A DNA stretch of 64,000 bases from a virus, in the UHGV virus genome UHGV-0214148, one strand, 5' to 3'. Positions 563-63,508 of this stretch are shown here, in pieces; the first letter of the stretch is position 1; each line of letters begins with the position of its first letter. A program made the position numbers and the translations under genes. The notes below the pieces were generated by a model. That model had not been told where the DNA came from and ran no database searches. It saw only the letters and a program-made list of their open reading frames with translations.

Positions 563-615
563 TCTTAATACTCCTTTAGGTTAAACAGTCGAATAGCGTG
601 TAATTCTACAACGCT

Positions 616-640
616 CACCTAAGTAAAATATATCTAAGAT
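616..640. promoter_or_regulatory. AT-rich promoter-like motif CACCTAAGTAAAATATATCTAAGAT
   Basis: Near-identical copies at 59101 and 63484; lies between a terminator hairpin and the start of gene 173..562. Orientation unresolved. Confidence 0.4.
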
Positions 641-668
641 AATTTTCAATAGGGTTAAAATAAAGGTG

Positions 669-697
669 GGCTAGTCTATTCGATGAATAGACTAGCC
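669..697 (-). terminator. stem-loop terminator (GGCTAGTCTA / TAGACTAGCC)
   Basis: 10-bp perfect stem; A-rich tract on plus side gives a U-run on the minus transcript; downstream of gene 706..1257. Confidence 0.55.
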
Positions 698-705
698 GAA
701 TGGTT

Positions 706-1257
706 TTACTGCACGCACAAAATCTGACCTGAGTATTCGAAGGGATTTTCTGCGAATGTTCTGAGTTGTCGGCAAATGGCGTCAACGTCAGGCTCATCCG
801 TCCGCGTATAGATCGCGGTCCCGTTCTTTAACACCCACTCACGGCAATTCCGGCCATAGTCATCCACTAACAATCTCCCCTTATCAGCGTAAGTCGCTTT
901 TTCTGCAGAGCTTGTGGTTACGATAACTTTGTGACCAGGCACACCAAAGTGTTTCTCGAAGAATAATTTTTTACACTCAACAACACGGTCGTGATCGAAA
1001 TGGTCTTCCGAACCCGACGTTAATATCGCCCAGCATTCCCCCAGACTTTCTACCGTTTCGAGGATTTTTGCAGCCTCGGGTATAGGGTCTAGTTTATAGA
1101 AAAGATCCGGGTCCTTTAAATACATTTCCCGGACCAGTGCACGGCGGTGCAATTCCGGCATTCCATGAAATTCTTGTATGGACATTCCTTGAAAGTGGTG
1201 GGTCAACACGTATTTACGCCAACTCGCGAACACGCCGTCACTATCTAAATTGAACAT
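706..1257 (-). CDS. HAD-superfamily 5'(3')-deoxyribonucleotidase-like protein
   Basis: 183-aa ORF; N-terminal DSDGV (HAD motif I, DxDx[TV]); size and layout resemble the NT5C-type nucleotidase family. Motif-level only. Confidence 0.5.
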   Translation of the reverse strand: MFNLDSDGVFASWRKYVLTHHFQGMSIQEFHGMPELHRRALVREMYLKDPDLFYKLDPIPEAAKILETVESLGECWAILTSGSEDHFDHDRVVECKKLFFEKHFGVPGHKVIVTTSSAEKATYADKGRLLVDDYGRNCREWVLKNGTAIYTRTDEPDVDAICRQLRTFAENPFEYSGQILCVQ

Positions 1258-1323
1258 TTTTGATTATCCTTTTTGTAGAAGTTCCTCCGACACAATAACG
1301 GTAGAAATTGTAAAATAAAAAAA

Positions 1324-1623
1324 TTAGGACTGCTTAATCGAAAGAATGAACCGAAACGGTTCAGTTAACAAGAGGTAAGTACGTGTAAAGTCGATTTCGG
1401 TACCGGCTTGACGCACATCGCAATAAAATTTCGCGATATCTTGTTGTGAAATACCTGCGACAATGTTGTTGACTTTACGTTTGGTGTCAAAACGTTCAGC
1501 GAGTATCGAAGAAAGCACTTCCTTTCCAGCATGCTCTTGAACGGCATAGATTGTTAGTGCTTTCAATTCCTCAGGCGTTAAAGTTTGCAAAGTCGGAGGT
1601 ATGGCAATGTTAACCACTTTCAT
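1324..1623 (-). CDS. hypothetical protein
   Basis: 99-aa ORF in minus-strand gene train. Confidence 0.45.
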   Translation of the reverse strand: MKVVNIAIPPTLQTLTPEELKALTIYAVQEHAGKEVLSSILAERFDTKRKVNNIVAGISQQDIAKFYCDVRQAGTEIDFTRTYLLLTEPFRFILSIKQS

Positions 1624-1672
1624 GCTTCCCTCACAATCGACAAATTCGGGTTGCAGACCATGAACTGGGCGA

Positions 1673-2311
1673 TTATGGAGTTACAGTGTATTCGTTTAAC
1701 GCAGCGTCAAAAATACCCCGAGAGATTTCTTTTGCATCAGAAATCGTAATCTGAGGTTCCCGTTCACTACACGCTACAGTAAGCTCGTAGAATGAACCAC
1801 CCTTTAATAGCTGGTTAGCATTCAAACGAACGTCTTGGTTAAGCGCTACTGCTAACGTGTGAGTGTATCCGTTGTTTGCCAGTCGAACTAAACGCAGTTC
1901 ACCGACCATACTGGGTTTAATTTCCCAGTTCGATAAGCGGTGAGGAACAATCCACACTTCATTAGCGCGGTAGGGTTCAGCCGACAGTTCTATCGAGGGC
2001 TGGACAACATCACGTTCGTCGAACCCATACAGATAAAAACGTGGCACAGCGGTTGTGGTTTCCGCAGGTGTAAAGTAGCGACGGACACCACGCAGGCAAC
2101 GTTCTAAATCGACAGAGCAGCAAATACGGGGTACCGTTTTGTCTTCGTCTCTGTAAACGCTATAAGGAATCCGAGGTGTGAAAACCGAAATCTTTCGATC
2201 GCTGATATGCAACGGGGCGCTATCTAACTTTTTCAAAGAAACTTTCTTTGCGGTGCGCGGCAGTTGTTGCTCTAACCACTTCACCAACGAAGGTTCAATA
2301 GTATCAGCCAT
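1673..2311 (-). CDS. hypothetical protein
   Basis: 212-aa ORF; stop immediately followed by start of the next downstream gene. Confidence 0.55.
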   Translation of the reverse strand: MADTIEPSLVKWLEQQLPRTAKKVSLKKLDSAPLHISDRKISVFTPRIPYSVYRDEDKTVPRICCSVDLERCLRGVRRYFTPAETTTAVPRFYLYGFDERDVVQPSIELSAEPYRANEVWIVPHRLSNWEIKPSMVGELRLVRLANNGYTHTLAVALNQDVRLNANQLLKGGSFYELTVACSEREPQITISDAKEISRGIFDAALNEYTVTP

Positions 2312-3115
2312 TTACCACTTCCCGTTACCTAAACCCATAACACGCAGGTTAGTTTTCTTATTAGCGATGGCCAGGTACTCCTGCGCTAACGCACGAACTT
2401 CACCACGACGAGATTCTGTCGCGATAGTAGACGTAGTGTTAGGATTTCGCAGAATGTCCTCCAGCGCCTGGAGGGAGACGCGACGGTCCAGCAGAACGCG
2501 TGTGGATTCTTGAGCCACCTTACTACCGCGTTGAATCGCAGAGTATTTGTTACAAATCTGCAACCCGTCTTCGATAACCCAGTCAAACGTTACCAGGCGA
2601 TCCAGGCGACGTGTTTTCACACCACCTACATAACCTTCACGTACGATTGCACGCAGAGAGAAACATACATTCTGGTGTGGGTTTTCGAGCGCTTCTGCTA
2701 AGTACGGACCACGTTCACGGTTCGGCTTAATCCAGCCCCAGATTTCCATAACTGGTAACCCGTTACAGGTTTGGTCGGTTGGAATCACTTCAACTTCACG
2801 AATGTGCATACAGACGTTTTTCGTCTCAATCCATTCGTTGCGATCGATCCATTGCGCTTCGGTCATACCGGGTTCTGGTGCCGGGTGATCTTCTTCCCCG
2901 AACAGATTCCCTGCTTTCACTTTACGCATAAAGATGTTCGAGCGTTCGAATACGTGCTTAGACTCGTTATAGGCGTAAAAAATCCCTTCCGAGTTAAAGA
3001 TATTCAAAGCACCCAATAGTACGCGGTAATAACCATCCGCGTCTTTCTCCAGTGTGGCTGGAGCGTTAACACCGGCTAACGCTACGCAGTTGTAACGCAG
3101 TGTTAAATTGTCCAT
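2312..3115 (-). CDS. hypothetical protein
   Basis: 267-aa ORF, directly abutting downstream gene (operon-like). Confidence 0.6.
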   Translation of the reverse strand: MDNLTLRYNCVALAGVNAPATLEKDADGYYRVLLGALNIFNSEGIFYAYNESKHVFERSNIFMRKVKAGNLFGEEDHPAPEPGMTEAQWIDRNEWIETKNVCMHIREVEVIPTDQTCNGLPVMEIWGWIKPNRERGPYLAEALENPHQNVCFSLRAIVREGYVGGVKTRRLDRLVTFDWVIEDGLQICNKYSAIQRGSKVAQESTRVLLDRRVSLQALEDILRNPNTTSTIATESRRGEVRALAQEYLAIANKKTNLRVMGLGNGKW

Positions 3116-3146
3116 TGTTTTCCCCGAGTAAAAGTAAAAGGTAAGA

Positions 3147-3881
3147 TTACCTCATAAACAAATCTTCGAGCGGTTCGGCACGCACCGGGTCAACCTGTAG
3201 CGCAGAACGAATACCACGTTTAAGTTCCACGTCCGCAAGCTTCGCCAGTCTCGACGTTTTGTTAAGTGAACCACTGCGCAATGGAATAAACTGCACAGGG
3301 TTGTTAAGATCGCTATCTTTCTTCAGCGTGTAACGGAAGAACGTTCTCGGATCACCCACTTTACGCTGCGTGTGCGCTGCGTAAACGTCAGCGGTAATCT
3401 GATCGGCAAATACAGTAAAACCGTTCCATTTCTTGACTTTATCAGGTGCCAAGAGTTCAGCATCATCCGCTGCAGTAAACCAGAAAGGACGATTACCAAA
3501 GTCGTAAATATACGACGCAATGTTGTAAATAGGGTGAGACAACACCTGTAAATTGCGGTTGGGGAAAACCACTGTACCGGGATCAAAACGAAATTCGTAA
3601 TAAGGAACACCAAAGACGTCGATCTCTTCAAACGCCGTTGGGGTAATCTCCATAAGCGTTGTCACGCTGGACACCCCATATGTTTTACGGTCGGTAGAAA
3701 TCGCAAAGATCCCTACAATTGTTACCGTAGAAGAAATAACCGCCAACTCTTTCGCCACAAACCCAACGGGGATGTAAATGTAACACCCCCCTTTGGTAGT
3801 GGTGACCGTGCCGTTATTTACCAAGTCCGCATGAACCTTAGTAGGGTCACGACGGGCTGTTTCAATCGCACTCACGATCAC
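3147..3881 (-). CDS. hypothetical protein
   Basis: 244-aa ORF. Confidence 0.55.
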   Translation of the reverse strand: MIVSAIETARRDPTKVHADLVNNGTVTTTKGGCYIYIPVGFVAKELAVISSTVTIVGIFAISTDRKTYGVSSVTTLMEITPTAFEEIDVFGVPYYEFRFDPGTVVFPNRNLQVLSHPIYNIASYIYDFGNRPFWFTAADDAELLAPDKVKKWNGFTVFADQITADVYAAHTQRKVGDPRTFFRYTLKKDSDLNNPVQFIPLRSGSLNKTSRLAKLADVELKRGIRSALQVDPVRAEPLEDLFMR

Positions 3882-3893
3882 CTCCTAAGCGCG

Positions 3894-5354
3894 TTAAAGT
3901 TTATCGACAAATACTGAACCTGCAATCCAGTTCAGTACATAGTCAATCATCCAACTGGTTGCGGCTTCTGCCGGGTCGGTGTTCTCAATCATCGCGGTAT
4001 GAATCGCACGCATCAGCGGATCAATTTCGTAGGCGCAGAATACGGCGTTACATGCAGTCCGGATGATAAACAACGTAATGTCTTCGTCTGCGTTGACAAA
4101 GAAATCATCACAAATCCCCATAACAACCTGTTTGACTTCTTCGCGAGTGCGCGTCAGTTCACCAACAGTCAGGTAGCCCTGGTCGAGCTGGTCGATTGCA
4201 ATCGAGAACGCAGTTTTCAGTGCCTGGCGGTTACGACTTACCCAGTCGAGTTCATTTCGTTTCTGAACGATAATTGCACGACGATTGTAAGCTTCAACGT
4301 AGGCTTTCTGGTTTTCCAGCAGAGACGCGACACGTGCGGAAACGTTATAGTCGCCTTCGTCCATCAGGTAAATGGCACCCAGCAGGGCTTCAACGATACC
4401 GCCTTTTTCCAGGTAGTCATCCATCGTTTCCTGACAGATATAGACGTTTTTCTCGTTGGTATCGTAAGAGTAAACGATGTTACCTGTGGCGACACGGTTA
4501 GCCACTGCTTTTTCAAAGCCGTATACCCAACCGATAGACGTGTAATAGGCACGACCCATTTCCGCTTTCCATTTCAGGGCGTCAACACCTGAGTCAGGCC
4601 ACGGACGTTCAATGAAGAACGAAGACAACAGCAGCACCAGAACACGTTCTTTTACCATTTCCGGTGCTTTATCTGCAACAGGTACGGTGTAGTTACCTGC
4701 CAGCAGCAGTTTTGCTGCATCGTACATGCTGAGGTTCAGGTCGTTCAGTAATTTACGCACCAGCTCATCGTACGCTTTTACACCTGTTTCCGGAATCTCG
4801 ATGTCGGTCGGTACATCGAACTTGATTGGGTCGTAAGTCGTACCGTTACCCATCGGGTTGGCGATTTCTTGAATCAGCGCCTGGACAACTGGGGAATCCA
4901 CACACGGATCGATACCTACCGGAATCAGGTTCCAGTCTTCGACCAACGGTTTGACATCTTCAATCGTGTTATTCTGGATAACCAGCTGCACAAACGGTTG
5001 AACAACGTTACGGGCAAAGTCCAGCATCCCGTTGCAACGCTGAATGGCCATGTTCTTCAGTTCGAATAACGTGGTTTCATGATCGTCAACACGCAGTGCT
5101 TCAACTTCAACAGCACCGTCACGAATAATCGAAGCTTCTGCCGTACCGTCTACAGGACGTTTAAGCTGCGTAATCGCGGGCAGTTCCTGGAAGAACTGTT
5201 CGTCGGTGATTGTGGTATCGAAAACGCGGGTAGGGTCGACCGCACGGTTGAGCAAATCAACCGGAGAGTCAACGTCTGTGCCAAGCTGAACATTATGCTG
5301 TTTGCACAGTTTCATGGCGTTAGTAACCGCATTCAGCGAGTATAAACTGATCAT
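3894..5354 (-). CDS. hypothetical protein (possibly virion-associated)
   Basis: 486-aa ORF; 4-bp overlap with upstream gene start; no recognisable catalytic motif. Structural role is a guess from position beside the RNAP block. Confidence 0.55.
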   Translation of the reverse strand: MISLYSLNAVTNAMKLCKQHNVQLGTDVDSPVDLLNRAVDPTRVFDTTITDEQFFQELPAITQLKRPVDGTAEASIIRDGAVEVEALRVDDHETTLFELKNMAIQRCNGMLDFARNVVQPFVQLVIQNNTIEDVKPLVEDWNLIPVGIDPCVDSPVVQALIQEIANPMGNGTTYDPIKFDVPTDIEIPETGVKAYDELVRKLLNDLNLSMYDAAKLLLAGNYTVPVADKAPEMVKERVLVLLLSSFFIERPWPDSGVDALKWKAEMGRAYYTSIGWVYGFEKAVANRVATGNIVYSYDTNEKNVYICQETMDDYLEKGGIVEALLGAIYLMDEGDYNVSARVASLLENQKAYVEAYNRRAIIVQKRNELDWVSRNRQALKTAFSIAIDQLDQGYLTVGELTRTREEVKQVVMGICDDFFVNADEDITLFIIRTACNAVFCAYEIDPLMRAIHTAMIENTDPAEAATSWMIDYVLNWIAGSVFVDKL

Positions 5355-27616: not shown

Positions 27617-27648
27617 GGTAATTCTCCTTTAGGGTAAAAAATGAAAAT

Positions 27649-27674
27649 ACCCTACTCCTAGTCAGGAGTAGGGT
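27649..27674 (-). terminator. stem-loop terminator, CCCTACTCC/GGAGTAGGG stem family
   Basis: ACCCTACTCC / GGAGTAGGGT stem; same stem as hairpins at 46993 and 47611; A-rich plus-side flank. Confidence 0.55.
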
Positions 27675-27679
27675 AGGTG

Positions 27680-38593: not shown

Positions 38594-38627
38594 GGTTTAT
38601 TCTCCTAAAATGGTTAAAAACAAAGTA

Positions 38628-38647
38628 ACCCTAGCCGAAGCTAGGGT
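38628..38647 (-). terminator. stem-loop terminator (ACCCTAGC / GCTAGGGT)
   Basis: 8-bp stem, CGAA loop, A-rich plus-side flank. Confidence 0.5.
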
Positions 38648-38652
38648 GTCTA

Positions 38653-43907: not shown

Positions 43908-43962
43908 GTTGAATTCTCCTGTTAGTCTACATTAAAATAGTTACAAACGTTAAAAAGAAAGA

Positions 43963-43993
43963 CCCTCCTGTACCACGAATGGGTACAGGAGGG
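43963..43993 (-). terminator. stem-loop terminator (CCCTCCTGTACC / GGTACAGGAGGG)
   Basis: 12-bp stem; A-rich plus-side flank; immediately downstream of gene 43998..44456. Confidence 0.55.
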
Positions 43994-43997
43994 GGTG

Positions 43998-46986: not shown

Positions 46987-46992
46987 AAAGAT

Positions 46993-47018
46993 TACCCTAC
47001 TCCTTCGGGAGTAGGGTA
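46993..47018. terminator. bidirectional terminator, CCCTACTCC/GGAGTAGGG stem family
   Basis: TACCCTACTCC / GGAGTAGGGTA stem, TTCG loop, A-run before and T-run after; between convergent genes. Confidence 0.65.
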
Positions 47019-47027
47019 GCTTTTATT

Positions 47028-47579: not shown

Positions 47580-47610
47580 TTTAATACTCCTAAGGTGGAA
47601 AAAGAATTAA

Positions 47611-47632
47611 CCCTACTCCCGGAGGAGTAGGG
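47611..47632 (-). terminator. stem-loop terminator, CCCTACTCC/GGAGTAGGG stem family
   Basis: Same 9-bp stem as 27649 and 46993; between the paralogs 47641..48573 and 47028..47579. Confidence 0.55.
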
Positions 47633-47640
47633 GATTTAAA

Positions 47641-48626: not shown

Positions 48627-49106
48627 TTAAAATAAAGGCAAGTTACGCCATTGTCCTACCGAGTAAAAAGCTTTTGGATGTTTACGGATATACGCTTTCG
48701 CTTCTTCTGGCAACCAACGATCGCCTGCCAGTTTTTGTTGTGCAACAATTACCGCCATCAACAAATAAGGGTTTTTCGCACCGGGGAACTTTGCATTGGT
48801 TTCTAGTGCAATATCCAACATTGACGACCAGCCCAGTAATTTATGTTGCGCCGGTAAACGTTCTTCAATATACATCAGCCATTTCATGATTTGTTTAGGC
48901 TTGTACGGACAGGTATAATTCGCCCAACACACCATGACGAACTTAATAACCTTCGCAATCACCCATACAGGGACAGTCACGAAAAGGCAGAAAATGGCCA
49001 ACTGTGAGGCGGGCGCTTCGACAAAAGTAACCGCTACAAGAACCATACACAGTTCAAGTACCACAAACCAAAAACGCGTTGGATAACGCCAAATGAATTT
49101 TATCAT
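48627..49106 (-). CDS. integral membrane protein
   Basis: 159-aa ORF; several hydrophobic segments (FWFVVLELCMVLVAVTFV, LAIFCLFVTVPVWVIAKVIKFVMV). Confidence 0.55.
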   Translation of the reverse strand: MIKFIWRYPTRFWFVVLELCMVLVAVTFVEAPASQLAIFCLFVTVPVWVIAKVIKFVMVCWANYTCPYKPKQIMKWLMYIEERLPAQHKLLGWSSMLDIALETNAKFPGAKNPYLLMAVIVAQQKLAGDRWLPEEAKAYIRKHPKAFYSVGQWRNLPLF

Positions 49107-49139
49107 AACTCTGTTCCTTTAGGGAATGAAAATAAAAGT

Positions 49140-49167
49140 ACCCCTTACTCCGTATAGGGTAAGGGGT
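49140..49167 (-). terminator. stem-loop terminator (ACCCCTTAC / GTAAGGGGT)
   Basis: 9-bp stem with A-rich plus-side flank; downstream of gene 49173..49682. Confidence 0.45.
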
Positions 49168-49172
49168 AGAAG

Positions 49173-49682
49173 TTAGAAGAACGGCTGATTTGGAATGACA
49201 GCGTACTCTAAAATGAACATATGTTCCGGGGCGTCTTCTTTACGCCAGACTTTGTGTGTCGACACAAGTTTTTCCAGAATCGTTAAGAAACTACGTTGGC
49301 AGTATGTGTTTTCACCAAGCAGTAGATTTTGAAGTTCTACAGTAGCGTCCATATACGCCTGTTTAAAGACTAAACTACGGTTATACTGCCCGGTAAAATT
49401 CCAAAGCAAGACCTTCCCTTCTTCGGTTTCTTTTACCGTTGGCCGTAAACCACAAATCCACAGTAAGGCAAGGTTGACGTTCCAGTCAAACTCTAAACCT
49501 TCTTCTTCGTCAACACCGAATGCTGTGGGTAAAGCATCGTAAAATTCGTGTTTCTCTGCGAATTCTTCATCCGACTTAATCTCGTCTTCGATACTGCTTC
49601 GGACGATACTGTAAACGTCTTTCGCGGTCAATTGTGCGGCTTTTGTAATGCCTTTATACCAATCGGTTACTACGATGCTCAA
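49173..49682 (-). CDS. hypothetical protein
   Basis: 169-aa ORF; 4-bp overlap with upstream gene. Confidence 0.55.
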   Translation of the reverse strand: MSIVVTDWYKGITKAAQLTAKDVYSIVRSSIEDEIKSDEEFAEKHEFYDALPTAFGVDEEEGLEFDWNVNLALLWICGLRPTVKETEEGKVLLWNFTGQYNRSLVFKQAYMDATVELQNLLLGENTYCQRSFLTILEKLVSTHKVWRKEDAPEHMFILEYAVIPNQPFF

Positions 49683-50404
49683 AGGGTAACTCCTCTATTG
49701 ATTGGAAAACTCGTGTTTATCGTATCCCAAATTCTACTAACTTCCGCCAGTTGAATCTGACGTGGTGTTTTCTTCGCAAACGCAAGCTGACGTGGGGCCG
49801 AGCCCACAACAACAGGCACATCGATTTTCGCGCTATAGAACGCGGCGTCTTTCATAAAGCCTGCCATTTCTCGTTGTGCTGCTCGAGATTTGCTTTTGAT
49901 TCGCGTGTGAGCGCCACTTTCACCCCAGTGGTAAGCTAACGCAACTTCAGCCATGGTGGGCTTGCGTTTGAGTCGTTTGGTTAACCCCTTCTCAAGATGT
50001 TTAACATACGCAGTAGCCAGCAAAACAGCGTTACGCGGATTATACAAATCGGCATTCTGACTAAGACCTAATTCTTTTCCATAAAGCTTTAGCAGATTAC
50101 GCTTGGTACTTGGAAGCATCTGTACCAGGCTGTGTGCTCGTGAGCTTTTGTTGTAAGCCTTGGGATCAAAACGCGATTCACGATAAATCAGTGTAATCAT
50201 CAGCTTGGGATCAACGCCCTGCTTTCGTGAGATTTCCACAATTAACGGGCTGACTTTTTCGAACCGATGTTGGATTTGTGCAAACTCTCGCTGATGCTTA
50301 GAATGTGGCGTTGACGTTGACGCCTGTGCGTTAAACGCGAAAAGTGTTACCAGTAAAAGAAAGAAGATACGAAACATTTTGTTTCTCCAGTTGGATTTAT
50401 ACAT
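49679..50404 (-). CDS. secreted lytic transglycosylase (SLT domain)
   Basis: 241-aa ORF; signal peptide MFRIFFLLLVTLFAFNAQAS; LIYRESRFDPKAYN...SLVQMLPST matches family-1 lytic transglycosylase motifs. Start may be the internal Met (MFRIF). Confidence 0.7.
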   Translation of the reverse strand: MYKSNWRNKMFRIFFLLLVTLFAFNAQASTSTPHSKHQREFAQIQHRFEKVSPLIVEISRKQGVDPKLMITLIYRESRFDPKAYNKSSRAHSLVQMLPSTKRNLLKLYGKELGLSQNADLYNPRNAVLLATAYVKHLEKGLTKRLKRKPTMAEVALAYHWGESGAHTRIKSKSRAAQREMAGFMKDAAFYSAKIDVPVVVGSAPRQLAFAKKTPRQIQLAEVSRIWDTINTSFPINRGVTL

Positions 50405-50462
50405 TTCCGTATTCCGTAAGACGAAATGACGGCGCGGACAGCTAATACTCCTTTGTTGTGTG

Positions 50463-50488
50463 CCCTAATGATAATATCTATTTAAAAG
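50463..50488. promoter_or_regulatory. AT-rich promoter-like motif CCCTAATGATAATATCTATTTAAAAG
   Basis: Same core; upstream of the secreted transglycosylase gene, overlapping the stop of the macro-domain gene. Confidence 0.35.
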
Positions 50489-51038
50489 AGTTTGGAATTA
50501 ATGACTCTGCTTCTTGGTACAGCTTATCAGGTAAGTATAACGTGTAGCGCTGCCTCCTCGGTTCAAGTTTTTTGTAAAGCCACAAAAAGATTTCTTGTCT
50601 TTCCCAGGAATCTAACCACCCATTTGCCATTCCCAACGGAGGGATAGCAACGCTGGTATCCAGATCCTCAACACAGTCTGCTAATGCGGTAATGCCCGCA
50701 GTAACATAAGAAACCTGGGATTTTAAACGCCAATGTGTTTTCGTGGGGAGCAAGATACACTTTTCGTCAGAGTAAACGTAAACGCTTCCAATCTTAATTT
50801 CGTCTTCACGACACCGCTTACGATAATCCTGATAAAGGTTGGGGTAGCGTTCACGACACGCGAGTGCAATACCGCGACCCATTGCTCCTACGCAGTTAAT
50901 GGTAACGACTTTATAGTCTTCGGGCGCATTAAAAAGATCGTTACCAATTTCAGATTCTTTACGTACCGTTAACATAACGAAACGCCCGGAGTTGATGTGT
51001 AGTATTAAAACGTGTACCGCCGATTGATAGCTCGACAA
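50478..51038 (-). CDS. macro-domain (ADP-ribose hydrolase-like) protein
   Basis: 186-aa ORF; VVTINCVGAMGRGIALACRERYP ... LLPTKTHW ... VAIPPLGMANGWLDSW follows the pattern remembered for TARG1/DarG-type macro domains. Confidence 0.55.
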   Translation of the reverse strand: MSSYQSAVHVLILHINSGRFVMLTVRKESEIGNDLFNAPEDYKVVTINCVGAMGRGIALACRERYPNLYQDYRKRCREDEIKIGSVYVYSDEKCILLPTKTHWRLKSQVSYVTAGITALADCVEDLDTSVAIPPLGMANGWLDSWERQEIFLWLYKKLEPRRQRYTLYLPDKLYQEAESLIPNSFK

Positions 51039-51062
51039 GTATAGCGATATATGTTTTACCCA

Positions 51063-51431
51063 TTATCGATTTTTCGTAATCCATTGCTTGACCGCCGCTT
51101 CTAAACCTTCGTGTTGTAAGCCCAGGCGCTGCATAGTCAGTGACAAGTTAAGCGTGTGGACGACCTGCTCACGGAACTGATGATCGTTCATACGGTCCCA
51201 GACATTCTCTACTGAAATATTGTGTTTCCAGAGCAAATAAGCTTCACGACACGATGCGCGACGAACTAAACTGGGTTTAACAAAAGGCAACTCGATTTCA
51301 GGCAAGTAACCTAAAAGCTTAACTAACGGCGTTACCTGCGTCTTACCGAAGTCACCACATTGATAACAAATTTGCAGAATATCAATTTCATTCAACGGTA
51401 TGCCGTAAATTGATGGGTTCTCTGTGAACAT
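51063..51431 (-). CDS. hypothetical protein
   Basis: 122-aa ORF; GAGGAGAA SD. Confidence 0.5.
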   Translation of the reverse strand: MFTENPSIYGIPLNEIDILQICYQCGDFGKTQVTPLVKLLGYLPEIELPFVKPSLVRRASCREAYLLWKHNISVENVWDRMNDHQFREQVVHTLNLSLTMQRLGLQHEGLEAAVKQWITKNR

Positions 51432-51633
51432 TCATATTCTCCTCAGGCTCGAAATGTGATTCGGGTGGCAACGTCCCTAAAGCCCCTTGGATACAAGCCG
51501 TCAGTGAAGGTTTGCCGAAACAGACCTTACCTATCGTCCCCACATTGGGATGCTGTAAGAACGCTTTCGCACGTTCGTATTCTTTCCAACAAATACTCGT
51601 ATCCAAACCACCCACTCCGTACGATTTTAACAT
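51388..51633 (-). CDS. hypothetical protein
   Basis: 81-aa ORF with AGGAGAG SD; 3' end overlaps downstream gene by 44 bp. Confidence 0.4.
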   Translation of the reverse strand: MLKSYGVGGLDTSICWKEYERAKAFLQHPNVGTIGKVCFGKPSLTACIQGALGTLPPESHFEPEENMNVHREPINLRHTVE

Positions 51634-51699
51634 AATTAGCTCTCCTGACGTAAATTTCTCACACTCATAGTGAGGTACGCCAAGAGAGCTTTATTGTTT

Positions 51700-52143
51700 T
51701 TAGAATGTTTTGCTAAAATCGACCCACTCACGATCGTGTGAGTAAACCGCTTGATAGCCGCGTCGGATGAAATACTCTTTTGCTTCTTTACATTTCGCAT
51801 ACATGCCAGTAACAATCTCGCCGAAAACTTCATCAGCTGCAATTGCTTTGAAAATCTCTTTCATTACACCCCGTTGACGATAGTCTGGGAGCACGTATAC
51901 CGAACGTATCTTAAGTGAACCGTTACGATTCCGATAACTACAGTATCCTACCGCGACATCATCCTGATACACCAGAACTATGCAGTTACCTTCGATCAGC
52001 TGTCGCGCATTTAACTTCGGCACCGACGTTTTGATTTTCAGTAACGTGGCCTGGTGGTCTAAGTAACGGTAGTGTAGTTTGAGTAAATCGGCAGCTTGAC
52101 GCTCACCGACTTTAGAAGATGCGTTCAACAAATAAATTTCCAT
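51700..52143 (-). CDS. GNAT-family N-acetyltransferase
   Basis: YVLPDYRQRGVMKEIFKAI matches the acetyl-CoA-binding motif. Start set to ATG at 52143 (track ORF begins at a TTG two codons upstream). Confidence 0.6.
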   Translation of the reverse strand: MEIYLLNASSKVGERQAADLLKLHYRYLDHQATLLKIKTSVPKLNARQLIEGNCIVLVYQDDVAVGYCSYRNRNGSLKIRSVYVLPDYRQRGVMKEIFKAIAADEVFGEIVTGMYAKCKEAKEYFIRRGYQAVYSHDREWVDFSKTF

Positions 52144-52174
52144 TTGCAAACCTTAGAGACGCAAAAAAGTAAAA

Positions 52175-52303
52175 TTAAAACCAACGCACGATGACGAATG
52201 CCGCAGCGGCTAATATGGCCGTGGTGATTATCAATCCACCCCATGAAAGTTCCGCGTCGTATAGTGCGGATATCGCTACATTCGTAGTGTTTATCGAGGT
52301 CAT
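52175..52303 (-). CDS. small hydrophobic protein (42 aa)
   Basis: Hand-translated: MTSINTTNVAISALYDAELSWGGLIITTAILAAAAFVIVRWF; AGGAGCAGAAA SD; below ORF-track size cutoff. Confidence 0.35.
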   Translation of the reverse strand: MTSINTTNVAISALYDAELSWGGLIITTAILAAAAFVIVRWF

Positions 52304-52317
52304 TTTCTGCTCCTAGT

Positions 52318-52341
52318 AATACCCTCACGTCGGAGGGTATT
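52318..52341. terminator. stem-loop (AATACCCTC / GAGGGTATT) between small membrane protein genes
   Basis: 9-bp stem followed on plus by TTTT; a second hairpin (GGGCGTTT/AAACGCCC) lies about 15 bp further on. Confidence 0.35.
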
Positions 52342-52360
52342 TTCCGGATTATTTGGGCGT

Positions 52361-52459
52361 TTAATCTTCAAACGCCCATCTGTGTTGTTTAACCAGCAAG
52401 TTTAAACCTTTACCGATTAACCACATCGCACCAAGTGTTAACAGAACCCCTTCAACCAT
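52361..52459 (-). CDS. small hydrophobic protein (32 aa)
   Basis: Hand-translated: MVEGVLLTLGAMWLIGKGLNLLVKQHRWAFED; AGGAGAAGGGAAT SD. Confidence 0.35.
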   Translation of the reverse strand: MVEGVLLTLGAMWLIGKGLNLLVKQHRWAFED

Positions 52460-52470
52460 ATTCCCTTCTC

Positions 52471-52656
52471 CTAATTCCGCCATTCGCATTCGCGTTGACG
52501 CCAAATTGAACCCCACGATAGTTTAATCAGATAAGATGAAACTACCCATAAAATCATCACCACACAAAACATGACATAAAGAACCGCTAGAATGGACATG
52601 AAGCCAAACCCTGCCGCATCCACAATACGACGGAACCAATCAGTTTGCATAAACAA
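52471..52656 (-). CDS. small membrane protein (61 aa)
   Basis: Track ORF; long hydrophobic core FGFMSILAVLYVMFCVVMILWVVSSYLI; GAAGGAG SD. Confidence 0.45.
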   Translation of the reverse strand: MFMQTDWFRRIVDAAGFGFMSILAVLYVMFCVVMILWVVSSYLIKLSWGSIWRQRECEWRN

Positions 52657-55144
52657 TTTTTACTCCTTCGTTATACACCGCAGGCAATGTCACCCCTTCC
52701 GGTTCGATGACACAGTACGATGCTTCATTAAGTTTAGAATGAACCTCGGCTTCGTGGGAGACTACCAACAGTTGGGAAAATTCTCCCGAGTTTGCTAACG
52801 TTTTAATAAAGCCGACCAGGTTGTTACGGTGCTCCTCATCCATGCCTTCCGAAGGCTCATCCAAAAGCAACGGAAACTGATGCAACTTCAGCGCTTTGTA
52901 CGCAGTCAGCCTGAACATCAGATTAAATATCGCACGCTGCGCCTTAGATCCTTTACGCACGTCAGGAACAGGCTCAGGATGCGTTTTTAGCTGGACAGGA
53001 AAAGTATAATCCAAATCGCCGTCAGTGAGGTCACAAGGCATAACGCGCATGGGGTACGTCCAGACTTGTTCGATATAACGCGTCATTAACTCTGTGATTC
53101 TAACGATAGCGTTGTAAAAATACTTTCTAAGTACACCCTTTTCTGGCGAGAAGGCTTGAATCATCAGTTTGTTATTGAACTGCTGGGCTTGTAAGTCAGC
53201 AAGTTCGCGTTCCAAACTGTTGAGCTGATTCAATTCATTTTCCATCTGACGATAACGTTCGCGTGCGGTTGTAAAAGCATCCAGCTTCCCTTCTCGAGCA
53301 CGTAAGAGTTCCTCGACGACTGTATTTGTCAACGTAACCTTAACATCACTCTCTAGCCGTTCGAATAACGCACTGAAATCATCTACAGCACGTTTAACAT
53401 TCACCAGATAGGTAAGTGTCGTGTTAGCCAGTTCGTGCTCTCTACGACGCATTGAGAGCATTTCTGTGGCTTTACCTAATCGCGACTGTTGGAAGGCGAT
53501 TTTCTGTTGTAAAGCGCCATCGACGTTACCAACGGCCGCTACGGCATCCTGCCATTCTTTTTCCGCCTTCACTAACCGTTGTCGGGTTTCATGATACTCA
53601 ATAGCAGAGTACAACTCGCTGTCAAACGCTGCGCATAGACTCCCGAACTGTTCACGTGATTCAGTGAAGACGTTACGTTCTTGCAAACGCTTAAAGAACA
53701 TGCTCAATACCGGGTCCTTTGAATACGTCAGTACAATCTCACGAACCTGCCGCATATAAGTTACATCAGATTCTAATTCAACACGATAGCGTAATAGGGC
53801 CTCTAACTGTGTTTGCAGTTCCGTGCGCTGCTGTTGTTGTCCGCGAATCGAAGACTCAAGTTCAGGTAAAGAACGCGTAACACCGGGCCGAAACTTAAAC
53901 CGACACTGCGGGCAATCCACTTCCGCTGTTTCTAAGTAGTGATTACGCTCGTGATTTAAATTCTGTAAAACGTTCTCCACTCGCTGGAGTCTATCCCGCA
54001 ACCCTGCGGTTTTTTGATCCATCACCAGAAGCCGTTCTTCCAAAACATTGAGTTTTTCGGTTGAATGAATTGCGTCCAGCGTTGTTCCTAACCGTTGCCC
54101 CCAGACACGCGCGTCGGTAGCCGCACGAAGTTGGTCTAAATTGACGTTGTCGTTAAATAGACCCGGAAAGAGATGCTCGGTGTCCCATTTGGTAAGTAAC
54201 TCACGTAAACGCGCCAATGTATTCTTGAGACCTTCGTGATTCCGCATCAGGTAGTCTTGTCGTGTTGACTCATCCATCAATAACGACAAGTCTTTATTCA
54301 ACATCGATACCTCTGTTTCAGTAGACACGACAGCTTCGCGGGCCGTCGCTTCGTTTTGTCGCGCGACCAGTATCTGTTCATCGGTAGGCAGGCCACCACG
54401 ATGTTGTAATATTGCGTCGATGGTTGGGCCCAAGCTGTTTAATAACGCTTGGATTGTTTCGATGGTGACGGCACGATTTAATCCTGGCAACTGTTCGATT
54501 TCTCGGTTCAATTCACGTAAATCCGATTCCAAACCTTTTAATCTCGTCGCTAACTGCTGCCGTTCTTCCTCGTTCTCAATAACACGCGTCCGTAATTCGG
54601 CGATCTTGCGGCTGGTGATTTCAATACCCCCATTTAAGGCAGTAAGGTTTTTACGTAAACGTTGATAAAACCCTAACGCGTAAGTGAGGTCAGAGGTACT
54701 TAAACGGTAAAACCATTTGCGGCGTAATTCGGTTCCCGCATCGGTTAACAACACCTCACCATTTAATAGTTCTTTAATCTCTTTCGTAATACCCGTGATT
54801 TCTTCAACACGGGAGTTGTAGACTTTCGCATTACCTTGCTCGACGATCTTTGTCCCCGTGGTCAGGTTCTCAATATCGCAAACCAAAGAGTTGCCTTTAC
54901 GGGCAACTTTGAATCGATAGCGTTGATCGCCAACTAAACAGTAGTTCGTGTAAGAACCGCCGTCCCTGAATTCAGTTTTAGCTGGTGCTAAGGGTAAGAA
55001 CACAGACAGTAGACTGGTTTTCCCGCAGCCGTTCCCACCCAGGATAATTGTTGTCGGAGACTGGATAGTGAAATCGAAGGTTTCAATTTCATGTAACCCC
55101 ATCCCCGTAAAACCTTTGAGTATAATGCGTTCAACTTTTAGCAT
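52640..55144 (-). CDS. Rad50/SbcC-like SMC-family ATPase
   Basis: Walker A GGNGCGKTS at N-terminus; long coiled-coil centre with CPQC zinc-hook-like motif; C-terminal LLLDEPSEGMDEEH (Walker B) and VVSHEAE. Start set to ATG at 55144 (GGAGGTG SD). Confidence 0.75.
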   Translation of the reverse strand: MLKVERIILKGFTGMGLHEIETFDFTIQSPTTIILGGNGCGKTSLLSVFLPLAPAKTEFRDGGSYTNYCLVGDQRYRFKVARKGNSLVCDIENLTTGTKIVEQGNAKVYNSRVEEITGITKEIKELLNGEVLLTDAGTELRRKWFYRLSTSDLTYALGFYQRLRKNLTALNGGIEITSRKIAELRTRVIENEEERQQLATRLKGLESDLRELNREIEQLPGLNRAVTIETIQALLNSLGPTIDAILQHRGGLPTDEQILVARQNEATAREAVVSTETEVSMLNKDLSLLMDESTRQDYLMRNHEGLKNTLARLRELLTKWDTEHLFPGLFNDNVNLDQLRAATDARVWGQRLGTTLDAIHSTEKLNVLEERLLVMDQKTAGLRDRLQRVENVLQNLNHERNHYLETAEVDCPQCRFKFRPGVTRSLPELESSIRGQQQQRTELQTQLEALLRYRVELESDVTYMRQVREIVLTYSKDPVLSMFFKRLQERNVFTESREQFGSLCAAFDSELYSAIEYHETRQRLVKAEKEWQDAVAAVGNVDGALQQKIAFQQSRLGKATEMLSMRRREHELANTTLTYLVNVKRAVDDFSALFERLESDVKVTLTNTVVEELLRAREGKLDAFTTARERYRQMENELNQLNSLERELADLQAQQFNNKLMIQAFSPEKGVLRKYFYNAIVRITELMTRYIEQVWTYPMRVMPCDLTDGDLDYTFPVQLKTHPEPVPDVRKGSKAQRAIFNLMFRLTAYKALKLHQFPLLLDEPSEGMDEEHRNNLVGFIKTLANSGEFSQLLVVSHEAEVHSKLNEASYCVIEPEGVTLPAVYNEGVKIVYAN

Positions 55145-55194
55145 ACCCACCTCCATAAAGACGGAGTGTGGTGTAAAAAGAAAAAAATAAAGAA

Positions 55195-55218
55195 AGGGAG
55201 AACCCGAAGGTTCTCCCT
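55195..55218 (-). terminator. stem-loop terminator (AGGGAGAACC / GGTTCTCCCT)
   Basis: 10-bp stem, CGAA loop, long A-run on plus side; between gene 55223..55831 and the ATPase gene. Confidence 0.6.
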
Positions 55219-55222
55219 AACG

Positions 55223-55831: not shown

Positions 55832-55861
55832 CTGGTCTTTCCTTTTAGATCAAAAAAAGAA

Positions 55862-55879
55862 GCCCCGAGTAAACGGGGC
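55862..55879 (-). terminator. stem-loop terminator (GCCCCG / CGGGGC)
   Basis: GC stem preceded on plus by AAAAAAAGAA. Confidence 0.5.
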
Positions 55880-55887
55880 CGGGCTAA

Positions 55888-56364: not shown

Positions 56365-56401
56365 TTTAATACTCCTTTAGGTAAATATGTCGTAAAAAGG
56401 A

Positions 56402-56418
56402 CCCCGGACGTACCGGGG
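56402..56418 (-). terminator. stem-loop terminator (CCCCGG / CCGGGG)
   Basis: GC stem preceded on plus by an A-rich tract; downstream of the secreted-protein gene block. Confidence 0.5.
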
Positions 56419-56430
56419 CCAAGACTACAC

Positions 56431-59051: not shown

Positions 59052-59100
59052 CTTTAGTTCTCCTAAAATGGTTTTCGTTAAGTGAGAGCTTTTGTACTCT

Positions 59101-59125
59101 CACCTAAGTAATATATATCTGAAAT
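59101..59125. promoter_or_regulatory. AT-rich promoter-like motif CACCTAAGTAATATATATCTGAAAT
   Basis: Between terminator hairpin 59158..59177 and the start of gene 58680..59051; preceded by imperfect inverted repeat AGTGAGAG/CTCTCACC. Confidence 0.4.
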
Positions 59126-59157
59126 TATTTTTAATATTAACGAACAAAAAAATAAAA

Positions 59158-59177
59158 GGTGGGGGTAAACCCCCACC
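59158..59177 (-). terminator. stem-loop terminator (GGTGGGGG / CCCCCACC)
   Basis: 8-bp GC stem, TAAA loop, preceded on plus by AAAAAAATAAAA; directly upstream (minus sense) of motif 59101..59125. Confidence 0.6.
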
Positions 59178-59181
59178 GATG

Positions 59182-63480: not shown

Positions 63481-63483
63481 ATT

Positions 63484-63508
63484 CACTTAAGTAATATATA
63501 TCTGAAAT
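63484..63508. promoter_or_regulatory. AT-rich promoter-like motif CACTTAAGTAATATATATCTGAAAT
   Basis: 24/25 identical to the 59101 copy; directly after hairpin 63454..63480 and about 25 bp upstream of the plus-strand start at 63534. Confidence 0.4.

Follow-up and report, generated by a model that had tools for sequence, protein, structure and literature searches.

Three very small genes for predicted membrane peptides behind the SbcC-like gene of an SPN3US-like jumbo phage

In Salmonella phage SPN3US, the essential SbcC gene (gp186) is followed by the gene for gp187, a 63-amino-acid (aa) transmembrane (TM) protein (Thomas et al. 2016, PMC5105663). That paper draws an analogy with phage T4 gp47.1, a peptide of 46 aa which Miller et al., cited therein, proposed to be a membrane anchor of gp46/gp47. 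Two other described systems invite comparison, namely T4 Imm (83 aa, two TM segments, superinfection immunity), whose gene is located between replication genes 42 and 43, and the lysis cassette of phage phiKZ, composed of the gp141/141.1 spanins, the class III holin gp142, the regulator gp143 and the endolysin gp144 (PMC12894885). Here, we analyse three consecutive minus-strand open reading frames (ORFs), designated A, B and D, that directly follow an SbcC-like gene in a 64 000-nucleotide stretch of UHGV virus genome UHGV-0214148 (the window). All three are, with high confidence, genuine genes for membrane peptides, and together they appear to be the smallest form (A-B-D) of a conserved, tightly packed cassette of small-membrane-protein genes behind SbcC.

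Coding evidence for A, B and D

The earlier note on this DNA, made from the sequence alone, had described three consecutive minus-strand mini-ORFs, each preceded by a strong Shine–Dalgarno (SD) site, and both the strand reading and the ORF listing place the starts and SD sites exactly there (table 1). It had also taken the products for single-TM peptides. Indeed, each has one hydrophobic stretch on the Kyte–Doolittle scale, and AlphaFold2, run on orthologue alignments, returns single helices for A and D. Peptide A forms one long hydrophobic helix, modelled as continuous over residues 2–57 (predicted local distance difference test score, pLDDT, of 83), and carries a C-terminal R-x-CEWR motif. 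In peptide B, the hydrophobic helix is N-terminal and has one conserved K/R at its middle; a conserved W-A-F motif lies near the C-terminus. Peptide D combines a conserved polar or amphipathic N-terminal half (MTxxNxxN...Y...W) with a C-terminal TM helix and a W-[LF]-F end; it is modelled as a single continuous helix over residues 3–41 (pLDDT 85), and its eight invariant columns (M1, T2, N5, N8, Y15, W21, A35 and F42) fall mostly in the polar N-terminal half. All three peptides are predicted to insert into a membrane.

Close relatives of the window comprised four IMG/VR loci retrieved through the GNAT acetyltransferase encoded downstream, including two diverged members (L006 and L007), and eight contigs retrieved through the exact A protein. 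The three frames are open in all 13 haplotypes of the window clade (the window and 12 metagenomic contigs), and the amino acid identity of the trio to the two diverged members is 58–67%. Ratios of non-synonymous to synonymous substitution rates (dN/dS, Nei–Gojobori) range from 0.10 to 0.31 for A, from 0.28 to 0.38 for B and from 0.08 to 0.24 for D, and variable sites at codon positions 1/2/3 number 19/16/31, 12/6/15 and 15/8/26, respectively. The conservation of reading frames in related genomes, which the earlier note had proposed as a check, is thus borne out, with intact frames under purifying selection.

The same note had pointed to an overlapping ORF of 67 aa (52125–52328) whose translation would speak against the mini-ORFs. 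This ORF has no SD site, runs through the downstream hairpin (hairpin 2 in table 1) and across the GNAT start, and is cut by stop codons into pieces of 28–32 aa in L006 and L007. Taken together, the dN/dS values, the frame conservation and the broken 67-aa ORF settle in favour of the mini-ORFs the points on which the note had made its reading depend. A chance origin was also considered by scanning the whole 64 kb on both strands (128 kb) for an SD site, a start and 28–75 aa including a strongly hydrophobic 17-mer. The scan returned three ORFs, two of which are A and D, against 1.55 per window in shuffled sequence, B falling just below the cutoff. The cluster of small hydrophobic ORFs exceeds chance.

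It is therefore highly improbable that one or more of these ORFs arose by chance and is untranslated, or that the 67-aa frame is the real gene. Such a view can appeal to the gene callers, which called A and skipped B and D in all eight related contigs, and to a 42-aa window query (B plus upstream residues) that reached two clusters of a 5.8-billion-protein collection in a word-limited search. It has to contend with frames that are intact throughout the clade, with dN/dS below 0.4, third-position bias and a strong SD site for every ORF, and with orthologues in genera whose flanking SbcC genes are only about 69% identical at the DNA level.

None of the three peptides matches a Pfam family, and D has no match among the PHROGs either. 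In the 5.8-billion-protein collection and among 1.84 billion representatives, the A and D families are limited to SPN3US-like phages and matching large contigs.

The cassette across SPN3US-like phages

The window belongs to a jumbo phage akin to SPN3US and Erwinia phage Asesino (Chimalliviridae, the family in which current taxonomy places the genus Seoulvirus). Its SbcC-like gene, the orthologue of SPN3US gp186, shares approximately 69% DNA identity with those of Asesino, phiEaH2 (Erwinia) and SPN3US (Salmonella) in distant blastn searches, and its C-terminal 286 aa are 65–81% identical to the SMC proteins of Asesino and SPN3US. Annotated regions of SPN3US, Asesino, phiEaH2, SPAsTU, SaP7, pEa_SNUABM_29, Kwan, Machina and CR5 were used for comparison.

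The trio recurs at the same position in Seoulvirus, Erskinevirus, Machinavirus and Wellingtonvirus, with D in Seoulvirus only, and synteny and frame conservation extend over the 12 close contigs and six annotated phages. In relatives, further genes join it: C (gp188-like, 67–70 aa, two TM segments, phrog_18173), E (34–39 aa, ending in ALTQGWF) and F (83–92 aa, with a very basic C-terminus, phrog_15402). The composition varies with the genus. Seoulvirus carries A, B, C, D, E and F (pEa_SNUABM_29 being without C); Erskinevirus A, B, C, E and F; Machinavirus A, B, a two-TM protein and F; Wellingtonvirus (Kwan) diverged A and B, three other genes, E and an F-like protein; and the window clade A, B and D only. 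A and B are thereby the constant pair in all SPN3US-like genera examined, including Machina and Kwan, and C, D, E and F are the variable members. Throughout the cassette, start and stop codons overlap in the relatives, suggesting translational coupling, and the GNAT gene bounds the cassette downstream in all of them. Outside the SPN3US-like group, no cassette of small membrane peptides was found after SbcC in phiKZ, Miami, Deimos-Minion or Xoo-sp14; in CR5, an unrelated membrane protein of 113 aa with two to three hydrophobic segments directly follows SbcC.

Gene A is the orthologue of SPN3US gp187, Asesino gp208 and phiEaH2 AFQ96656. It shares with them the overlap with the SbcC stop, a length of 59–66 aa, a long hydrophobic helix, a Y..FC core and the C-terminal CEWR, but differs in sequence (22–34% identity) and in the N-terminus MQTDWFRR proper to the window clade. 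The SD site of A lies in the last SbcC codons and the SbcC stop is at 52640, so that A overlaps the SbcC gene, by 17 nucleotides (nt) from the TTG start or 11 nt from the ATG start; this arrangement is common to the window, SPN3US, Asesino, phiEaH2 and SPAsTU. The SD site is unchanged in L004–L006 and reads GAGGGAG in L007. A matches phrog_16515 (E = 1.2e-4, residues 2–59 of the 59-aa form), and its profile collects approximately 30 clusters, all from SPN3US-like phages or contigs of 220–250 kilobases (kb), among them the gp187-like proteins of SPAsTU and phiEaH2 and SPN3US-like proteins of 63 aa. Just four clusters remain at 50% identity among the 1.84 billion representatives. In Salmonella phages SPFM12, SPFM6 and SPFM8, annotated proteins resemble a segment-shuffled gp187 with reordered peptide blocks, which suggests local assembly or consensus artefacts in these records.

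Gene B matches phrog_13448 (profile hidden Markov model, E = 1.4e-8) and is orthologous to pEa_SNUABM_29 gp245, Machina gp199, Kwan gp210 and phiEaH2 AFQ96657. Syntenic tblastn matches were obtained in nine phage records, and local tblastn matches at 11 of the 12 loci; in all the SPN3US-like genera examined, the gene next behind the gp187-like one is a counterpart of B. Members of phrog_13448 resemble B both in this position and in the motif M-[IVE]-x-G-[IV]-x-L...W-[LI]-I-[GR]-[KG]...W-A-F, whereas B, at 32 aa, is shorter than the others (34–38 aa) because it is without their G-[KS]-T tail. The gap between A and B is 11 nt in the window, compared with an A stop/B start overlap of 1–4 nt in relatives.

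Annotation of B is uneven: the gene is annotated in pEa_SNUABM_29, phiEaH2, SPAsTU, Machina and Kwan, and unannotated in SPN3US, Asesino and most contigs. In the SPN3US record (JN641803.1), we found B (34 aa, 171588–171692), E (35 aa, ...ALTQGWF, 171985–172092) and F (92 aa, phrog_15402, 172111–172389) as unannotated conserved ORFs. The annotated 40-aa gp190 (172338–172460) overlaps F in a different frame and is probably a mis-call. With B and D uncalled in the eight contigs and B, E and F missing or mis-annotated in SPN3US, the gene counts of jumbo phages omit conserved micro-proteins.

Gene D is the orthologue of SPN3US gp189, pEa_SNUABM_29 gp244 and SPAsTU MLDJOKPK_00250 (43 aa), with which it shares its architecture, its invariant residues and 37–41% identity over the full length. 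As in these relatives, it is located upstream of the GNAT gene. A tblastn search with D alone gave no match, the orthologues being reached through synteny and local low-stringency tblastn; a profile search then collected 12 clusters, all in the SPN3US-like group, with E-values of 1e-13 to 1e-19. In Seoulvirus, D follows gene C with an overlap; the window clade has no C, and its D stands behind a spacer that contains hairpins. Erskinevirus, Machinavirus and Wellingtonvirus (e.g. Asesino, phiEaH2 and Kwan) have no D. We also considered D and the ALTQGWF peptide E as paralogues, which would give a universal core of A, B and D/E; one weak BLASTP match within a five-sequence set links the two, but hhalign gives no support.

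A, B and D therefore join existing, uncharacterised families (gp187-like, phrog_13448 and gp189-like). What is new is the view of the trio as the minimal core-plus-one of an SbcC-coupled cassette, together with the wide lack of annotation of B (and, in SPN3US, of E and F) and the conservation of hairpin 2.

No near-identical record for the region was found by megablast among phages, plasmids and complete E. coli genomes, and relatives were reached by distant blastn and tblastn only. Contigs of the same clade, 220–225 kb in length, are numerous in IMG/VR, ENA, Logan and NCBI draft assemblies, those from many metagenome assemblies measuring about 223–225 kb. Draft assemblies under the labels E. 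coli, Shigella flexneri and Salmonella Chester contain the clade too, and the 5.8-billion-protein collection lists the exact A protein in 289 index blocks. Further downstream of the trio, an ORF of 34 aa (MGKTYIAILVELSIGG..., 50959–51063, minus strand) lies between the genes for a 122-aa protein and a macro-domain protein; it is called in seven of the eight related contigs and has no clear TM segment.

Table 1. Position of the trio, its signals and the neighbouring genes in the window.
Feature	Position	Strand	Description	Basis
SbcC/SMC (Rad50-like) ATPase gene	52640..55156	-	838 aa; 5' neighbour of the trio	Pfam SMC_N
SD site of A	52663..52669	-	GAAGGAG, within the SbcC coding sequence (codons N-E-G-V)	sequence
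Gene A	52471..52656	-	61 aa from TTG 52656 or 59 aa from ATG 52650; stop 52471	
SD site of B	52464..52472	-	AGGAGAAGG, overlapping the TAG stop of A (52471-52473)	sequence
Gene B	52361..52459	-	32 aa; ATG 52459 to TAA 52361	
Hairpin 1	52354..52378	-	TGGGCGTTT...AAACGCCCA, 11 base pairs; over the last codons and stop of B	fold
Hairpin 2	52318..52341	-	AATACCCTC-CGACGT-GAGGGTATT; 3 nt upstream of the SD site of D	fold
SD site of D	52310..52314	-	AGGAG	sequence
Gene D	52175..52303	-	42 aa; ATG 52303 to TAA 52175	
GNAT acetyltransferase gene	51700..52143	-	147 aa from ATG 52143	Pfam Acetyltransf_1/7/10 and phrog_3810
SLT transglycosylase gene	49679..50404	-	putative endolysin; orthologue of SPN3US gp198	
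159-aa protein gene	48627..49106	-	two N-terminal TM segments; two genes downstream of SLT; candidate holin	

Possible roles of the peptides

The reading that we favour, tentatively and as somewhat short of an even chance, takes A and B, joined by D in some lineages, to be inner-membrane peptides that would be made together with SbcC and would have the host membrane, or a membrane protein, as their target. A and B would be produced from the SbcC message, probably by translational coupling, since the start of A overlaps the SbcC stop and the SD site of B overlaps the stop of A. D, which has its own strong SD site, may be set apart by the terminator-like hairpin. The peptides would insert in the host cytoplasmic membrane and act there jointly, A and B as an obligate pair and D as a lineage-specific third partner, possibly as small peptides that modulate the membrane, or a larger membrane protein, during expression of the replication and recombination genes. 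Such a role would be of the host-takeover or exclusion type, in kind like that of T4 Imm rather than that of a lysis holin. Membrane insertion, complex formation, the timing of expression and the actual function of the trio are what we infer here. Polar or aromatic residues are conserved inside the helices (Y25, F28 and C29 in A, K/R16-17 in B and T27 in D), which suggests specific helix packing rather than simple anchoring.

Like the trio, Imm is a small inner-membrane phage protein encoded amid a cluster of replication genes; unlike it, Imm has two TM segments, whereas A, B and D are each single-helix peptides. Several further points weigh against the favoured reading. BLASTP within a five-sequence set found no significant similarity of A, B or D to Imm, nor was any similarity found to a characterised small membrane protein, and the functional analogy is therefore weak. 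The sole literature mention that we found of any member is one sentence on gp187 in the searched text of PMC5105663. No promoter was identified for the unit. The topology of A is ambiguous, as basic residues flank its helix on both sides; because both ends are basic, a two-helix hairpin was considered for A, but AlphaFold2 gives one continuous helix, a result by which the topology is not settled. Finally, A and B have low dN/dS and are always found beside SbcC, a pattern for which a housekeeping role alongside SbcC is no worse an explanation than an interaction with the host.

This last point bears on a quite unlikely alternative, in which A, with B, would anchor or localize the phage SbcC–SbcD nuclease at the inner membrane or at the early-infection vesicle. 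A core partner of this kind would fit the universality and the low dN/dS of the pair, and the position of A speaks for it as well: in the window clade and in Seoulvirus, Erskinevirus and Machinavirus, A begins before the SbcC gene has ended, in Wellingtonvirus the A start and the SbcC stop are within a few nt of each other, and CR5 carries a different membrane protein at the very same place. In T4, the product of gene 47.1, which overlaps gene 47, is likewise predicted to be a membrane protein, so that gp47.1 and A are alike, in position only, as tiny membrane peptides encoded over a phage SbcCD gene. However, 47.1 lies upstream of the SbcD gene 47 whereas A lies downstream of SbcC, T4 forms no phage nucleus, and the anchoring by gp47.1 is itself a proposal; nor do A, B or D resemble gp47.1, the best BLASTP match within the five-sequence set covering 17 residues (E = 0.06). 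The lifestyle of these phages is a further difficulty. A nucleus-like compartment has been demonstrated experimentally in SPN3US and Asesino, which replicate their DNA inside this protein shell, without a lipid membrane (PMC13282480), and the distant chimalliviruses named above (phiKZ, Miami, Deimos-Minion and Xoo-sp14) have the same SbcC with no membrane peptide after it. Conversely, lipid vesicles like the early-infection vesicle have been seen in SPN3US infection (PMC10541120). A tether of SbcCD is thus weakened by the nucleus-forming lifestyle, and kept alive as a possible role by the strict coupling of A to SbcC and by these vesicles.

The trio might instead serve lysis, A, B and D being holin, antiholin or pinholin-like factors that would depolarize or permeabilize the inner membrane and thereby activate or release the SLT transglycosylase. 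The N-terminus of the latter is strongly hydrophobic and signal-peptide-like (MFRIFFLLLVTLFAFNAQA followed by S, an AQA/S site), and the enzyme is probably exported by the Sec pathway. The trio and the SLT gene share a strand and a co-directional block, lysis cassettes typically contain overlapping genes for small membrane proteins, and no holin is assigned to SPN3US-like phages in the literature searched. In Klebsiella phage Miami, moreover, the SLT gene comes two genes after SbcC, so that the SbcC-to-SLT interval is an old neighbourhood. There (599–4121), SbcC is followed by a soluble protein of 94 aa and then by the SLT transglycosylase with its signal peptide. This neighbourhood predates the SPN3US-like group, in which the cassette and the GNAT and macro-domain genes sit inside the interval.

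In the window, however, the trio lies 1.8 kb away from SLT, with a terminator-like hairpin and five unrelated genes (GNAT, 81 aa, 122 aa, 34 aa and macro domain) in between; the 159-aa protein with two TM segments stands nearer to the SLT gene; and the coupling of A and B is with a gene of DNA metabolism, not with late genes. Each peptide has one hydrophobic helix, in line with the minimum of one TM domain in holins (classes I–III and pinholins), but none adjoins a lysis cassette. Peptides of 32 and 42 aa are, to our knowledge, below the size of any known holin. A, B and D have no lipobox, and therefore none of them is an o-spanin; with no extramembrane domain longer than approximately 20 aa, they also lack the long periplasmic coiled coil that accompanies the TM segment of an i-spanin. 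The phiKZ cassette, from the same phage family, resembles the setting of the trio in pairing a single-TM membrane protein with a transglycosylase-type endolysin, but its experimentally proven holin gp142 adjoins the endolysin gp144 and is much larger, with a large cytoplasmic domain (PMC12894885) of approximately 80 aa; the trio consists of bare helices five genes away from SLT, and phiKZ has no homologues of A, B or D after its SbcC gene gp165. We accordingly regard a holin role as unlikely, and less likely than the membrane-modulator reading favoured above. A role in injection, which the earlier note had suggested beside holin/antiholin-like factors and membrane-protein inhibitors, or in the virion finds no support here: gp187 is named once in PMC5105663, as following SbcC, and not in the virion-protein text searched there.

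On present evidence, the trio consists of ordinary uncharacterized phage micro-membrane proteins that would not surprise a specialist. A bolder reading, which we consider very doubtful, is that A and B (with D) form either an unrecognized membrane module wedded to SbcCD or new ultra-small (32–61 aa) lysis-timing factors for a Sec-secreted endolysin. Either version, if true, would be a mechanism without characterized precedent; in the first, the nuclease would be held at the inner membrane or the early-infection vesicle, and its action on host DNA or on incoming DNA would precede the protein nucleus. In any case, A and B belong to a small set of membrane proteins encoded by phages of this family, otherwise known for its protein-shelled nucleus and lipid early-infection vesicle, and they are good candidates for knock-down.

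Hairpins, terminators and promoter-like motifs

The earlier note had the three mini-ORFs separated by two hairpins. Both hairpins are real, but both lie between B and D and none between A and B. The 90-nt stretch that contains them (52296–52385) folds at −31.2 kcal/mol (z = −5.2), and an Rfam search of positions 50000–55000 returned nothing relevant, so that the hairpins fall in no known RNA family. Hairpin 1 is strong in the window and L004 only, weakened in most close relatives and absent in L006 and L007. Hairpin 2 is a conserved element. In close relatives, the sole change in its stem is A to G at 52341, which keeps a G–U pair, the other changes being in the loop; in L006 and L007, a different hairpin of 9 base pairs followed by TGTTTTA occupies the site. 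It resembles the intergenic elements of the window that combine a hairpin with a T-run, but is without the T-run, and thus looks like a member of the terminator class minus that run. It may act as a weak terminator, an attenuator or an RNA-end element separating D and the downstream genes from SbcC, A and B.

These intergenic elements are found in most gaps between minus-strand genes, where a GC-rich hairpin is followed by a T-run in a terminator-like manner, with stems often of the form ACCCTACTCC / GGAGTAGGGT, that is, of the ACCCT.../...AGGGT type. They occupy the gaps at 27617–27679, 38594–38652, 43908–43997, 46987–47027, 47580–47640, 49107–49172, 55157–55222 (directly upstream of SbcC), 55832–55887, 56365–56430 and 59052–59181, and transcription of the block appears to meet such an element after every one to three genes.

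A scan for sigma-70 promoters gave fewer sites than in shuffled sequence and was not used. An AT-rich motif, AGATATAT[AT]TTACTTAGGTGAG, is present in three minus-strand copies (614–635, 59099–59120 and 63482–63503), with none expected by chance. Its core, TATATTAC, resembles the early-promoter consensus of phiKZ, and the three copies may be early promoters for the virion RNA polymerase.

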